A stretch of DNA of 40,801 bases, from positions 1 to 40,801 of the forward strand of contig CAVYNY010000031.1 in the NCBI GenBank assembly GCA_963769935.1, read 5' to 3'. Position numbers and translations under genes: made by a program. How positions within the stretch are numbered: the first letter of the stretch is position 1; the number at the start of each line of letters is the position of its first letter. This document shows, one piece after another, positions 1-6,847 of this stretch. The notes below the pieces were generated by a model. That model saw only the letters and a list, made by a program, of their open reading frames with translations. It was not told the origin of the DNA and made no database searches. Origin of the DNA: an uncultured delta proteobacterium. Lineage in GTDB: Bacteria > Desulfobacterota > Desulfobacteria > Desulfobacterales > JAFDCJ01.

Positions 1-48
1 TAAAAATATAACTTTCCCTTATTTTGCAAATTCCAACTGTTTGGCTCT

Positions 49-225
49 GGAGGTTCGACGCGGAACTAAAGCGATAGGTTCGAGGTTTGAGGCGGAGCCT
101 TCGGCTGATAAAGGTTTGAGGTTAGAGGCAAGAAGGAAAAGGCTAAAGGTGAAAGGCGAAAGGACAAAAGCTAAACCCGCCGCAGCGAAGGCGAGCAAGC
201 CCGCCCAATGAAGGCGGGTAAATTT
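49..225 (+). repeat. purine-rich heptamer tract (GAGGTTN / AAGGCTN) with GCGGAGCCTTCGGCT mini-hairpin
   Basis: gaggttt-gaggtta-gaggcaa and aaggcta-aaggtga-aaggcga; same units recur at 866-1082 and 3425-3465. Confidence 0.8.
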
Positions 226-251
226 GCTTTGCCTGCTCTACGGGGGTATTA

Positions 252-518
252 TTATCGCTTGGATACAGCTGTTTTTTCCTGCTGCACTCTTTCATGTAAC
301 CATATCTTTATCAGGGCCGCACGGTCGACACCGATGCTCTGCCGGATTTTGTCAATTTCCTGAACCAATTCCTCAGCTATATCAAGGGTAATGCGGACCT
401 TTTTACCGTAGCGGATAATTGTAGCTTTGGTCATATCAACCAAATCATGAATGTCTTCTCCTTCGTCAAATCGACGATCAAATTCCCCTGAATTTTTTGC
501 AAATTTAGCTTTGCTCAT
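252..518 (-). CDS. brnA: BrnA-like antitoxin (CopG/RHH-type)
   Basis: EFDRRFDEGEDI...RITLDIAEELVQEIDKIRQSIGVDRAALIKIWLHER pattern; overlaps the end of brnT; ATG at 518 with GGAGG upstream. Confidence 0.8.
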   Translation of the reverse strand: MSKAKFAKNSGEFDRRFDEGEDIHDLVDMTKATIIRYGKKVRITLDIAEELVQEIDKIRQSIGVDRAALIKIWLHERVQQEKTAVSKR

Positions 519-768
519 ATAATATCGCCTCCTTTTTTCTGGCACTCCTCACCGATATAATACGAATGACATCCTCTCGTCGGGTGAAAATTGAGGTCCA
601 AAGTTTATTTCCGATTTTTCCAATCAAAGCATTTCTGTTTTCATCCGGGAAGTTTGTTTGAATTTCGACTCGATCCGGATCGTTCCACAATTCTATGGCG
701 GCATTGAAATCGATACCGTGCTTTGATTTGTTGGTACGGCTTTTCTTTTCATCCCATTCGAATTTCAT
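505..768 (-). CDS. brnT: BrnT family toxin (DUF497)
   Basis: MKFEWDEKKSRTNKSKHGIDF start and IRIISVRSARKKE end are characteristic of BrnT. Confidence 0.92.
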   Translation of the reverse strand: MKFEWDEKKSRTNKSKHGIDFNAAIELWNDPDRVEIQTNFPDENRNALIGKIGNKLWTSIFTRREDVIRIISVRSARKKEAILYEQS

Positions 769-776
769 GTAGAAAT

Positions 777-804
777 ATTATAGCTATTTTGTATTCAAAT
801 GCAA
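777..804 (-). promoter_or_regulatory. sigma70-type promoter of brnTA, probably a nearly leaderless mRNA
   Basis: minus strand TTGCAT-16nt-TATAAT; -10 box ends 8 nt before the ATG at 768; no RBS. Confidence 0.55.
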
Positions 805-865
805 CAATATTAAATGTAAATTTATAAAGATCCAAAGATAATTGAGAAAAGGTGAGCGCCGGCGG

Positions 866-1082
866 CGGTTGGAGGCGGAGCCTCCGGCTGCTGGAGGTTA
901 GAGGCGGAGCCTTCGACTGGTAGCGGTTTGAGGTTAGAGGTTGGAGGCAAGAAGCAAAAGGCTAAAGGCGGAGCAAAAGCCTTAGGTTCGAGGTTTGAGG
1001 TTGGAGGCAGAAAAGCATAAGCGCAGGGGGAAAAACGAAGCTTTAGGTTGGAGGCTAGAAGGAAAAGGCTAAAGGTTAAAGG
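866..1082 (+). repeat. second, longer heptamer tract in the same orientation
   Basis: repeated gaggttt/gaggtta/gaggttg units, two gcggagcct(t/c)cg hairpin units, and agaaggaaaaggctaaaggt shared with 131-150. Confidence 0.8.
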
Positions 1083-1273
1083 ATTATTTGCTGAATTTTT
1101 CGCACCGACTCCCCAACCACCTGCAGTCTCATTGAGATTGCATCCGGCAGGGTTATTCCGTCCGCCGATTGCACGAATTCACCCGCCAAACGAATTTTCA
1201 GAAACCTGCTTTCAATTCGGCTGACAGACTCAAGCATCAGGTCTATATAATCAGTTATGCCGTCTTCATGCAT
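1076..1273 (-). pseudogene. HepT-like/DUF86 ribonuclease, N-terminal half only
   Basis: DYIDLMLESVSRIESRF...DAISMRLQVVGESVRKI; the RX4H region is absent; ORF runs into the repeat tract, which supplies the stop. Confidence 0.75.
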
Positions 1274-1391
1274 AATGGATCTGTCTTTCGTTCGTGATCT
1301 TCGTGGTCTTCGGAGTGAGATAATATACGATCAAATCAACTTGAACTTTCCGGATAACCGGGTTAGTGATTATCAAATCTGGTCAGTGTGT

Positions 1392-4727: not shown

Positions 4728-4964
4728 ATGGCTCAATTTGTTGGCGCAAAAGAATTTAGACAACGATTTTCGGAGATTGTCGAGGACCTCAAGCGAACGG
4801 GCGAAATCGTGGTCCTTAAAAGGTCAAAACCGTTGTTCAAGGTGGTTCCTTATGAAGAAGTACCGTCAGATCTGCTCGACCGTGCCTACGCTATAAAGGA
4901 CAGCGGTCAACCGGATCTGCAGGAGATATCGCGGATCGTTCACAAAATACGTCGGGTAAAATGA
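4728..4964 (+). CDS. Phd/YefM-family antitoxin
   Basis: VGAKEFRQRFSEIVEDL...EIVVLKRSKPLFKVVP; GGAGG RBS; overlaps the PIN gene start. Confidence 0.8.
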   Translation: MAQFVGAKEFRQRFSEIVEDLKRTGEIVVLKRSKPLFKVVPYEEVPSDLLDRAYAIKDSGQPDLQEISRIVHKIRRVK

Positions 4965-5395
4965 AGGTTGTCGTCGATACCAATGTTGCCGTATCTGGTT
5001 TATTATGGCAAGGGCCGCCCAACGAGATTCTAAAATGGTCTCGACTGGGGATTCTGAAGATTATTGCCTGTGATGAAACGGTAAATGAACTCAGACGTGT
5101 GTTGCGTTATAAAAGATTTTATCGAAGACTTTCTGTGCTCGCAACTTCATCGGACGAAGTCTACGCTTACTTTATGAACCTGGTTTTATTCGTCCCTAAA
5201 CCAAAATTCATACCGACAAAAATTAAAGAAGATCCTTTCGATAATCTTTTCCTGGCATTAGCTTCCGAAAACAAGGCTCATATGATTATTTCCGGGGACA
5301 ATCATCTTTTAGATTTGCAGGCGTTTGAGGATATTCAAATTGTCACTCCGAGTGAAGCTTGTCAGGTCGTTGAGTCTTTTTTGTATAACCATTGA
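4961..5395 (+). CDS. PIN-domain (VapC-like) putative toxin
   Basis: MKVVVDTNVAVSGLL ... DPFDNLFLALA...IISGDNHLL PIN motifs. Confidence 0.92.
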   Translation: MKVVVDTNVAVSGLLWQGPPNEILKWSRLGILKIIACDETVNELRRVLRYKRFYRRLSVLATSSDEVYAYFMNLVLFVPKPKFIPTKIKEDPFDNLFLALASENKAHMIISGDNHLLDLQAFEDIQIVTPSEACQVVESFLYNH

Positions 5396-5403
5396 TCTAT
5401 ATT

Positions 5404-5434
5404 TTTGAGCATTTTCCGGTGGAAAATGCTCAAA
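5404..5434. terminator. perfect 14-bp stem hairpin after the PIN gene
   Basis: tttgagcattttcc-ggt-ggaaaatgctcaaa. Confidence 0.55.
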
Positions 5435-5450
5435 GCCAATCGAATATTTC

Positions 5451-5559
5451 TCACCCCAAAGGCGCAAAGAGCGCAGAGAAGAGAATACAGCTACCCTGAT
5501 CCCTGGCGCAGCCAGCCAACTAAATGTTTTCTCAGCGTTCTCAGCGATCTCCGCGGTGA
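5451..5559. repeat. TCACC...CAGAG / CTC.GCG...GGTGA inverted-repeat element (family B)
   Basis: tcaccccaaaggcgcaaagagcgcagag ... ctcagcgttctcagcgatctccgcggtga; relatives at 9869-10091 and 34021-34146. Confidence 0.7.
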
Positions 5560-5672
5560 AAAAAGCAGGGAGGCCAGGAAGTTGGGAGGGTGAGAGGGTT
5601 GGAGGGTATGGGAAAAATACATAAAACTATCCAGAGTATCCTGTGAATCCTGTCAAACAATATTATTCTTAA

Positions 5673-6230
5673 ATCGTCCTTTCCCTCATACTTTTGGCCG
5701 CGTTTGGTCCGGCCGCCGCTGTGGGGTGGGCATTGCAGCCGGGGGAGATCCTGGTGATTGCCAACGGCAATGCCGATAAAAGCGTTGATCTTGCAAAACA
5801 CTACATGCAGAAAAGAAGCATCCCGGCGGACAACCTGCTGGTGTTGCGTTTGACCGAAGACGAACAGTGCTCCCGTGATGAGTACGATAAAAAAGTGGCA
5901 GGCAGGGTCAGGACGCACCTGCGGGAAAAAGACCCTGACCACAAAATCCGTTGCCTGCTGACCATGTACGGGATGCCCCTGAAAGTGGCGCCGCCGCAAA
6001 TGTCCCCGGCGGAAAAGACCCAGGTCAAAGCGCTCGAAATGCAAAAAGAAAAATTAAGCCGGGACCTGAAACTTGCCGGGGACCAGGACAATGATCAAAC
6101 CCGGGCGCTTCGCAAGGATCTGCAGGCGCTTAAAAAAAGCATCGCTAAAATTGCCAAAAGCGATGCGCGCGCATCCCTTGATTCGGAGCTGGCCCTGGTG
6201 CGGGAGGAAAATTATTCCCTGGGGAATATG
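5673..6230 (+). pseudogene. TIGR03790-family protein, N-terminal fragment
   Basis: ALQPGEILVIANGN..SVDLAKHYMQKRSIP...CLLTMYGMPLKV...ASLDSELALV; signal peptide lacks a start codon; similarity ends near the GGGGAC motif at 6230. Confidence 0.7.
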
Positions 6231-6363
6231 GGGACGGTCATGCATATTCACATCTGATTTTGACCGATGATTCCGAATGAAAAGGCCACCCATTCGATTA
6301 AACCACTCCACGGACACTTCACCATGTCGCAAAATGTAATGGTCTCGGTGCAATCTGCTTCGC

Positions 6364-6627
6364 TTATTCAGATTCCAAAGGAAGTTGAAAATTACCGGCG
6401 ACAATGCCAGGGACGGTAATGTCCTCATCCAAACTTTCCCAGCGGAGGGCAAAACCGTTTAGCCGCAGGCTAACTTCTCGCAGCTCCTCTGTTGATGCTT
6501 TTTTTAAAATTTTAAACCTGTCAGCCGGAAAGCCGATGATCCTGCCGTCTGTCAGCTCGAGATAAATTATTCTGCCTTCAGCCCATGCTTTTATGGCTGC
6601 GGGTTCGGTAGTTAAAACTGTTGGCAT
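6364..6627 (-). CDS. DUF2442 domain protein (orphan antitoxin-like)
   Basis: [23 protein letters not shown]...[18 protein letters not shown]. Confidence 0.85.
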
Positions 6628-6847
6628 TTTAAATATAATCCCTGTTTCTATCTGATTAACATTACAGAACTTTTTCCACAGCGCAAGTTGCTTGTGGTAA
6701 ATTTATTCGGCCTATGAAATGAATTATGTAATATTGTGGAATATTTTTCATAATATTTGTGAAATATATATCTCTATATTCCAAGGATGATTTCTTTTAA
6801 AATTGTAAACAACTGAAATCTTAACGTATTTAATTTGCTTTCCTATT

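Follow-up and report, generated by a model that had tools for sequence, protein, structure and literature searches.

The window analyzed here is a contig of 40,801 nucleotides from an uncultured delta proteobacterium, and its first 6.6 kb (1-6640) are a decaying pile of toxin-antitoxin (TA) gene pairs and mobile-element scraps (Table 1). A sequence-only reading had listed about ten short genes or fragments in this interval, and every listed piece is present, including BrnA/BrnT, MNT, Phd, PIN, the 5' half of TIGR03790 and DUF2442. The interval also holds a VanZ-like gene that was absent from that list and for which a search of the genome contigs confirmed no relatives. The EPS/PEP-CTERM neighbourhood that had been proposed has its basis in the VanZ-like gene, TIGR03790, a single epimerase scrap and a single PEP-CTERM gene; the other 32 kb are not an EPS cluster. 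An Rfam scan matched nothing.

Table 1. Features of the block at positions 1-6640 and of its right-hand anchor
Feature	Position	Strand	Remarks
TIR end, inner part	1-48	+	clipped by contig start; 88% identity with 2617-2664
GAGG/AAAGG heptamer-type array	82-175		genome-wide family
BrnT (505-768) and BrnA (252-545)	252-768	-	intact pair
Second GAGG/AAAGG array	870-1084		HepT homology ends at array edge
HepT-like toxin gene, 5' half	1076-1273	-	upstream MNT of homologues missing here
Dispersed repeat at expected MNT place	1280-1360		83% to C16:37012-37093
VanZ-like membrane protein, left anchor	1460-2569	-	relative G012 has it beside PEGA gene
Lone TIR end, GGGGACGCCCAT family	2606-2664	+	
HEPN remnant	2743-2841	-	about 298 bp deleted at 4-bp microhomology
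MNT antitoxin	2834-3181	-	intact
Lone TIR end	3295-3386	+	
Lone TIR end, then GAGG repeat (3425-3470)	3387-3483	+	
Dead TIRtron	3484-4486	-	TIRs at 4486 (-) and 3484 (+)
REP-like hairpin, 40 bp	4012-4052		inside TIRYT gene; about 18 similar genome sites
MITE, 265 bp	4118-4382		CCCC/GGGG ends; 4-bp target duplication (TTAA)
Epimerase internal fragment	4494-4646	+	about residues 190-240 of paralogue
Phd (4728-4964) and PIN (4961-5395)	4728-5395	+	intact pair
Three stacked genome-wide repeats	5447-5657		CGCAAAG palindrome, GGGAGG array, ATCCTGT arm
TIGR03790, 5' half	5694-6224	+	homology stops at 6215-6223
Lone TIR end, GGGGACGGTCATG family	6230-6270	+	tip adjoins TIGR03790 cut
DUF2442 fused to first five DUF4160 codons	6364-6627	-	junction near 6612
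PEGA-domain gene, right anchor of variable block	7729-8211	-	beyond 1-6640

Five TA modules are spread across the block, and the stage of decay differs between them. The toxin is pseudogenised or lost in three of the five: HepT is halved (homologues have 120-140 aa), HEPN carries a deletion, and a previously missed DUF4160 gene, a family described as an effector in the available text of PMC12065111, was removed, with a 3-bp microhomology marking the 232-bp deletion. The HEPN gene runs on in genome G004 and in two independent contigs (X1 and X8). On sequence comparison, HEPN and DUF4160 were lost by ordinary 3-4 bp microhomology deletions. The 3' half of TIGR03790 was not found in the assembly. 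Counting TA modules and TIR ends together (4 + 6), this is the densest 6.6-kb stretch of the genome, on a TA list and seeds that include entries derived from the window.

Six GGGG(A/T)C TIR ends of TIRtrons lie in the block, and two of them flank the dead gene that had been read as a RAYT-like tail. The gene is indeed TIRYT-related, but the remnant (4088-3596) is larger than a tail: the N-terminus and both ends are kept, while about residues 50-140 are missing, and the HuH motif and catalytic Tyr are deleted. Its identity to a protein encoded on contig C35, which matches PF01797, is 75% and 38%. On that contig TIR ends of identical type flank an intact 268-aa gene (21175-21978), and in other genomes they bound elements of 936-1089 bp. 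Against NF047646, whose cut-off is 80 bits, a full relative reaches 65.8 bits, and a 263-aa relative has no Pfam match to a helix-turn-helix, the C-terminal domain that goes with TnpA-Y1 subclass 2.1. When intact RAYT genes were sought, at least five full-length TIRYT ORFs with HuH and Tyr were found elsewhere in the genome; contig C15 encodes a TIRYT of 334 aa (144363-145403). Neither end of the dead TIRtron folds into a significant hairpin (z -0.8 and -0.13); the sole strong one (z -6.1) is inserted within the TIRYT gene and is absent from related copies in independent short-read contigs. Such contigs also contain the empty site of the MITE; MITE pairs with the same right flank and different left flanks are possible short-read chimeras and were excluded from counts.

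TIRtrons are RAYT-like HUH elements named in 2013 (Di Nocera, De Gregorio and Rocco; PMC3733652), and TIRYT belongs mostly to TnpA-Y1 subclass 2.1 (Quentin et al. 2018, PMC6006769), according to the available text of both papers. As in those elements, a RAYT-like HUH/Y1 gene lies here between GGGG(A/T)C-headed inverted repeats, and end copies without REP hairpins are dispersed singly, in pairs and in groups. REPtrons differ, in that their RAYT gene is flanked by REP hairpins. The present ends also depart from the published form, GGGGWC-G as against GGGGWSAS, and the window copy is dead; the first six letters of the consensus fit 6/6 TIR ends and the seventh fits 1/6; the ends read GGGG(A/T)C-G/A.

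The repeats between modules had been taken as the agents of an integron-like mechanism that gains and trims cassettes. By eye, 8/10 inter-module junctions do carry a repeat, but these repeats come from six or more families unrelated to one another. When one fixed rule is applied across the genome, 5/8 of the spacers in 1-6640 are positive, compared with 39-49% of those of at least 150 bp overall (P ~0.24), and repeat presence alone is therefore not above chance; where genomes of this group are rich in repeats, finding one at each junction is near the baseline. Genome-wide, heptamer and palindromic repeats are enriched neither at TA modules (42/126 against 52 expected) nor at gene breaks (16/125 against 824/5318), contrary to the predicted enrichment, which excludes a single cassette-site family comprising all repeats. 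They are general intergenic filler of the genome, not recombination sites of this spot. Raw GGGG(A/T)C is likewise not over-represented in spacers (ratio 1.07-1.10), and among its matches only family-defined ends are informative. A split element was considered for positions 2576 and 5657, where GACAGGAT arms stand in inverted orientation; with 2 intact examples among 10 left arms, the case is too weak.

That junction repeats serve as recombination sites for TA cassettes is very improbable, and the integron-like reading is largely refuted. Arrays of the same family do lie on both sides of BrnTA, HepT ends at an array, and four-helix-bundle and GxxExxY genes of the genome are frequently array-flanked (5/9, and on both sides 3/9, against 645/2832 and 79/2832 controls). 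Periodic arrays are nevertheless found at 4/47 TA modules against 645/2832 controls and at 3/105 breaks against 318/5319 intact ends, and BrnTA copies in relatives have different repeats or none. No integrase lies on the contig, in line with the earlier statement that none is visible in the block: the integron integrase model TIGR02249 has 18 genome matches, all below the 265-bit cut-off and none on the contig, which starts at position 1 and leaves the left side of the locus unseen. A crude R-box/L-box scan without positive control gave 0 attC sites in 1-6900, where 30 shuffles gave 0-1. In the Vibrio superintegron (10.1101/2023.11.17.567518), too, a variable array houses several TA modules, but sedentary chromosomal integrons, as the available text describes them, have an integrase, attC, uniform orientation and whole-gene cassettes, none of which is present here. 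A single family of sites with co-oriented whole-gene cassettes does not describe a block with at least six repeat families, genes on both strands and seven cut genes. TA modules have no shared flanking site in relatives, and their orientation is mixed.

The proposal of a hotspot with turnover fared better. The PEGA and VanZ-like genes are about 30 bp apart in a same-genus relative (G012) and 5.1 kb apart here, and their adjacency in that relative points to 1-6640 as a turnover zone; the empty-site comparison consists of this one relative and gives no direction of change. Both anchors were found together in 1/22 same-genus genomes. It is exceedingly improbable that the patchwork is a chimeric or error-ridden assembly. 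The contig does begin inside a repeat, and independent contigs do not agree with it everywhere: they show one-base gaps relative to it at 1482-1531 and at 7163, and in them HEPN extends beyond 2833. Mis-assembly, which had been named as a refutation, is countered by independent short-read contigs that span most junctions, covering 170-792, 1150-1615, 2236-2836, 2833-3633, 4383-4758 (from a second study), 4523-5238 and 6468-6856; among the contigs listed, none bridges 792-1085 or 6222-6377. Loss of DUF4160 also recurs, with different breakpoints, in genome G018. One contig joint, from 1076 to 158, was considered as a BrnTA circle or duplication and is explained by mis-placement, the two arrays being 89% alike.

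The block thus fits a known kind of high-turnover chromosomal spot, and the suggestion of an undescribed system falls away because TA spots and TIRtrons have both been described already. In the TA spots of Belot et al. (2026, PMC13617665), TA modules likewise cluster next to the remains of transposases within a short interval of high turnover, and toxins are truncated or deleted while the partner is retained; the associated elements there are Tn3-type and other transposases that form cointegrates, whereas the present genome, with its abundant intergenic repeats, has TIRYT ends in their place.

What shaped the individual cuts is a separate matter. Truncations were said to coincide with repeats, which holds for 3/7 gene cuts (TIR tips at the epimerase 5' and TIGR03790 3' cuts, a heptamer array at the HepT 3' cut) and fails for 4/7 (HEPN, DUF4160, the TIRYT internal deletion and epimerase 3'). 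Repeat-directed gain and trimming as a whole does not stand, with most repeats unenriched and two TA partners lost via microhomology. TIR tips account for 2/7 cuts: the epimerase 5' cut lies 8-13 bp from the tip at 4486, and both it and the TIGR03790 cut are no more than 13 bp from a TIR end. In a break catalogue built from crude gene calls and paralogues only, TIR-family tips face breaks within 25 bp at 4/246 detected breaks (one being the window's own epimerase break) and point the opposite way at 0; the raw motif gives 7 facing against 1 opposite, so that tips cover 4-7 of the 246.

The alternative is a plain graveyard, in which TIRtrons merely inserted, host deletions happened to end near their tips, and TIRYT had no trimming role. 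This is rather unlikely overall, although 4/7 cuts here require no repeat, the majority of genome breaks are without TIRs, the nested MITE and hairpin insertions show general decay, and Photorhabdus TA spots erode likewise. Random deletion would hardly spare tips facing the cut (4 against 0), nor would it be expected to leave echoes confined to the tip or paired elements with flanks from different genes. Echo duplications occur at 24/103 tips against 5/199, 8/78 against 2/143 and 7/82 against 2/164, and GGG stands immediately outside the tip at 36/82 against 28/410. Elsewhere, a pattern search of other genomes gave 240 ends, reduced to 181 by removing 8 with short flanks and 51 failing the AT-rich/family filter; 136 of these had no protein match, 29 matches ended near the natural gene end and 3 crossed the motif, while the remaining 13 are gene alignments left unfinished outside the tip, 11 of them breaking off within 61 bp of it. 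A narrower TIR pattern gave 2 sites in 23 genomes and is uninformative. Among 49 paired elements in other genomes there is no consistent target duplication, and the same gene continues across both flanks in 0/18 with a flank match, only 4 of which have matches on both flanks. Pairing of the outer flank with the inner end, by fold-back or as a guide, was also considered and set aside: this genome gives a weak signal (mean stem 3.41 against 3.20, p 0.01), and two outside sets give none (p 0.15 and 0.76).

The reading that we favor, with a probability of about 0.6, is that the spot consists of five decaying TA modules, a dead TIRtron and lone TIR ends, and that the two cuts at TIR tips were likely made by TIRYT encoded elsewhere in the genome. 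TIRYT, an HUH/Y1 nuclease, would bind a GGGG(A/T)C end and nick at its tip; the nicked tip would be rejoined to a nearby site, often G-rich, so that DNA outside the tip is deleted or swapped without target duplication. Lone TIR ends stacked in one direction would remain, and repeated rounds could yield the short junction echoes. TA modules, for their part, may arrive as self-contained units of promoter and two genes, gather in tolerant spots and erode. The earlier idea of an HUH nuclease acting in trans keeps its footing insofar as the key repeats are TIRYT ends and the genome encodes full-length TIRYT copies, but binding, nicking, rejoining and trimming by TIRYT are what we infer from the arrangement.

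IS91-family ends are ori and ter rather than inverted repeats, and their enzyme is Y2. One-ended transposition of IS801, a member of this HUH family, generates variable deletions that are countered by TA modules (Bardaji et al. 2019, PMC6354349); as here, an element end sets one deletion border and TA modules persist nearby. According to the available text, the IS801 deletions were shown experimentally, whereas the tip deletions at this locus are reconstructed. Gene cuts at tips, echoes, absent target duplication and TA neighbours are not mentioned for TIRtrons in the available text of PMC3733652 and PMC6006769, and a literature search returned no description of TIR tip-adjacent cuts, junction echoes or such an arrangement. 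The locus itself is ordinary, since the filling and erosion of TA spots is already on record; what makes it useful is the chance to study TIRYT, a little-studied family of single-strand DNA transposases that two papers name in the literature searched. One genome combines full-length TIRYT genes next to the ends that belong to them, some 80 copies of such ends and cut junctions that are precise, and the action of TIRYT on these ends is therefore directly testable.

Any wider role of TIR ends in bringing TA modules together is less secure. Outside this contig, 11/76 TIR ends lie within 500 bp of TA modules against 2.1 expected, and 7/68 TA modules have an end that close; seeds were chosen by eye, four of them from the window, and 64/81 ends in the genome are unpaired within 1.5 kb. 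In other genomes a TA gene is near 5/67 ends, against 25/600 random spacer windows of this genome, so a general association does not appear among these 67 ends and TA modules and TIR ends may simply occupy the same places. The idea that paired TIRs carry TA modules as cargo was rejected, because in none of the paired elements among the 181 ends is a TA gene the first inner match.

A bolder and rather doubtful extension would make TIRYT a one-ended genome shuffler, with lone GGGG(A/T)C ends as reusable joining sites and with trimming, fragment capture and echoes as its products. Tips would be cut repeatedly and rejoined to new G-rich sites without target duplication, and 4487-6229 would be a captured fragment. 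If true, a widespread HUH family would have an activity not described before, and TA spots could form by this route. Less probable still is TIR-directed capture analogous to an integron, in which TIRYT swaps pieces, often TA modules with gene scraps, between outward-facing tips by a one-ended reaction and 4487-6229 is one such piece. TA modules lie inside TIR ends 6 times and outside 12 times, 61/68 have no end within 500 bp, the TA excess at ends is absent in other genomes, and BrnTA and Phd-PIN homologues have no TIRs in their immediate flanks. The stretch 4487-6229 does, however, reach from one tip to another, and a gene is cut at each of its ends. Two metagenome loci (L172 and L194) share common flanking elements around differing interiors of 726 and 601 bp that have genes cut at the tips and, by eye, one HicAB-like pair, but they belong to a single locus trio in short-read assemblies with multi-copy flanks. 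Contig C15 carries a tandem duplication of a Phd-ParE module, and TIR ends lie where the two copies meet.

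The window is an entire contig (C31) of the 8.0-Mb, 41-contig source genome, and the view of the locus begins at position 1. Between a VanZ-like gene on the left and a PEGA-domain gene on the right lies a variable interval holding toxin–antitoxin (TA) modules, gene remnants and TIR ends, the GGGG(A/T)C end-repeats of TIRtrons, units built on a RAYT-like HUH/Y1 gene (TIRYT). The genes listed in the sequence-only reading are real: Pfam or NCBIfam models match BrnT/BrnA, MNT, Phd, PIN, DUF2442 and the 5' half of TIGR03790, and likewise confirm the VanZ-like protein and a PEP-CTERM gene. 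TIGR03790 is linked to PEP-CTERM systems. Turnover between relatives is visible in just one of 22 same-genus genomes (G012), where the orthologues of the VanZ-like gene and the PEGA gene (7729-8211) lie about 30 bp apart versus 5.1 kb here, a difference without direction.

An assembly artefact is scarcely credible: contigs of eight short-read runs span most junctions, and the TIR-epimerase-Phd arrangement recurs in a second study. Against these run contigs the window shows one-base gaps at 1482-1531 and 7163; some small frameshifts may therefore be consensus errors. The PEP-CTERM gene (6941-7584) reads as two overlapping ORFs, and contigs from two runs carry one extra base at 7163, so that the split is probably such an error. 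The 3' end of the VanZ-like gene (1412-1657) has ten one-base gaps relative to each of two runs' contigs, reflecting local error or decay.

Features of the studied block (positions in the window)
Feature	Position	Description
Partial TIR end	contig start	
HepT-like toxin, 5' half	1076-1273	65-residue ORF; homologues 120-140 residues
Lone TIR ends	2606, 3295, 3387, 6230	all in the same orientation
Dead TIRtron	3484-4486	inverted GGGG(A/T)C ends; Y1 gene start and tail; no HuH motif or tyrosine
40-bp hairpin	4012-4052	inside TIRYT gene of the dead TIRtron
265-bp MITE	4118-4382	in Y1 gene promoter; CCCC/GGGG ends; TTAA duplication

Erosion of the TA modules is plain. The MNT gene that precedes HepT-like genes in homologues is absent at the HepT half, and the HEPN gene carries a deletion of about 298 bp between GTCA microhomologies; G004 has the complete gene, G012 a longer version than here, and run contigs X1 and X8 continue it. 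DUF2442 stands alone as the remnant of a DUF4160-DUF2442 pair, overlooked earlier and termed a TA pair elsewhere (PMC12065111); both genes are present in G002 and G014, 232 bp were deleted here at a TAA microhomology, and G018 also lacks DUF4160, with different breakpoints. Two of five TA modules are therefore intact and three eroded. Homologues of BrnTA and Phd-PIN within the genus occupy other locations with other repeats or none beside them, their similarity stopping right after promoter and stop codon. In G004, G012 and G014, homologues of MNT-HEPN and DUF4160-DUF2442 have TIR-like ends or remnants of TIRYT elements beside them. TA modules may collect and decay in such spots, much as those of Photorhabdus gather and lose them (PMC13617665). 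The locus can be classed as a TA spot that holds TIRtron remnants, both kinds already known; that it is a purely passive graveyard seems unlikely.

What had been read as a RAYT-like tail is RAYT-like but not just a tail, being part of the dead TIRtron. On another contig (C35) a relative bounded by the same ends is intact, and the search for intact enzymes succeeded: this genome retains at least five full-length ORFs that keep both HuH and Tyr, available in trans. TIRtron units were named in 2013 (PMC3733652), and their enzymes are placed mostly in subclass 2.1 (PMC6006769). Among carriers of this genome's transposase-end motif, many are Desulfobacterales, Desulfobulbaceae or other deltaproteobacteria. 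Empty sites for both MITE and hairpin occur in run contigs. The hairpin has about 18 similar places genome-wide, is absent in run copies, and is inserted at an identical codon in at least two TIRYT remnants (C31, C18). The MITE is composite, with two internal inverted-repeat blocks each also found alone; related places are C33:89179-89446 (4-bp target duplication TCAA), C13:198774-198892 and C11:613237-613382.

Two gene cuts abut TIR tips, the outer extremities of the ends. TIGR03790 homology, judged against three full-length relatives, stops at 6215-6223 beside the tip at 6230, and its 3' half was not found in the genome assembly; between the tip at 4486 and the start of the epimerase scrap there are 8-13 bp. 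In other genomes, both of the end families that abut these cuts occur on TIRYT elements and on derivatives lacking the gene. Among 246 gene breaks detected via paralogues, a family tip faced the break within 25 bp in four and lay in the opposite orientation in none (raw motif, seven facing versus one reverse). Family ends are mostly unpaired (64/81). Outside this contig, 11 of 76 TIR ends have a TA module no more than 500 bp away (2.1 expected), although in the converse count just 7 of 68 TA modules have such an end; TA genes within 700 bp of 5/67 ends in other genomes, versus 25/600 random spacer windows of this genome, count against a general TA role.

A further set comprised 181 ends drawn from metagenomes and other genomes. 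Of its 13 unfinished gene alignments, 11 ended within 61 bp of a tip, a count with no formal control. In that set, target duplications were not consistent across 49 paired elements, and of the 18 that had a flank match none showed one gene continuing across the element (both flanks matched in just four). The final bases before a tip are often echoed immediately beyond it, together with some of the tip itself: 7/82 versus 2/164 in this genome, and 24/103 versus 5/199 and 8/78 versus 2/143 in two other sets. G-runs are also enriched just outside tips (36/82 versus 28/410). In a chromosome-level assembly one TIR end is present five times, always pointing the same way, in about 4 kb (L020, L024, L025; OY761554.1:4884632-4890105), with a PIN-like gene between copies and strong junction echoes.

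We infer from these patterns that TIRYT probably drives trimming at tips: it would nick tips and then rejoin them, which would delete neighbouring DNA and leave echoes and lone ends in stacks. The model for this is the one-ended deletion known for IS801 (PMC6354349). IS801 belongs to the IS91 family. A system capturing DNA from tip to tip is quite improbable. It draws support from loci L172:549-1276 and L194:412-1014, where a common pair of TIR-bounded elements flanks differing interiors with genes cut at tips (by eye, a HicAB-like pair with a Cas1-like tail, and an ORF6N-like fragment), and from a TIR-joined Phd-ParE module at C15:130429-131939, tandemly duplicated (97%) with TIR ends at the joints and a TIRYT remnant adjoining. 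At L202:1-48 one of these interiors occurs, the left element absent. Our literature search yielded no paper linking a RAYT that has terminal inverted repeats to deletion and tandem duplication, and gave no account of tip-adjacent cuts or echoes, a point on which subscription papers and the supplements of PMC3733652 and PMC6006769 may bear. The finding on TIRYT ends is a side observation open to testing.

TIR ends are the exception among the repeats of the block; the other junction repeats are mostly not special. By crude gene calls made for this analysis (7238 genes), dispersed repeats occupy 39-49% of spacers of at least 150 bp versus 0/4668 shuffled spacers. The enrichment expected from the sequence-only reading did not appear beside TA genes (42/126 spacers next to 72 modules; 51.8 expected) or at truncation points (16/125 detected breaks versus 824/5318 intact ends). 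The genome has 919 strictly periodic arrays; they are found beside 4/47 TA modules versus 645/2832 controls. MITE- and heptamer-rich genomes occur elsewhere (PMC4853749). An integron-like set of repeat cassettes is very improbable, the locus failing integron tests for an integrase on this contig and, in a crude scan, for attC-like sites; TA modules have a role in superintegrons (10.1101/2023.11.17.567518). At three other hot spots a broken gene resembling an integron integrase (C20:456416-456848, C16:348155-348523, C13:559634-560334) has a PIN toxin gene no further than about 2.5 kb away, with no attC-like site there in a crude scan.

Unlike TA modules, four-helix-bundle and GxxExxY genes are flanked by periodic arrays in 5/9 cases, and GAGG arrays of the window match those around a truncated four-helix-bundle gene on C27 (C27:62389-63394). 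The arms of the palindromic repeat GACAGGAT, left and right, lie inverted at 2574-2590 and 5629-5657, bracketing 3.08 kb; intact copies elsewhere measure 94-100 bp, and a second wide spacing, 2.9 kb, occurs on C16. At 8679-9221 a 180-aa ORF with no Pfam match contains a 15-bp tandem repeat coding GGHY-type units.
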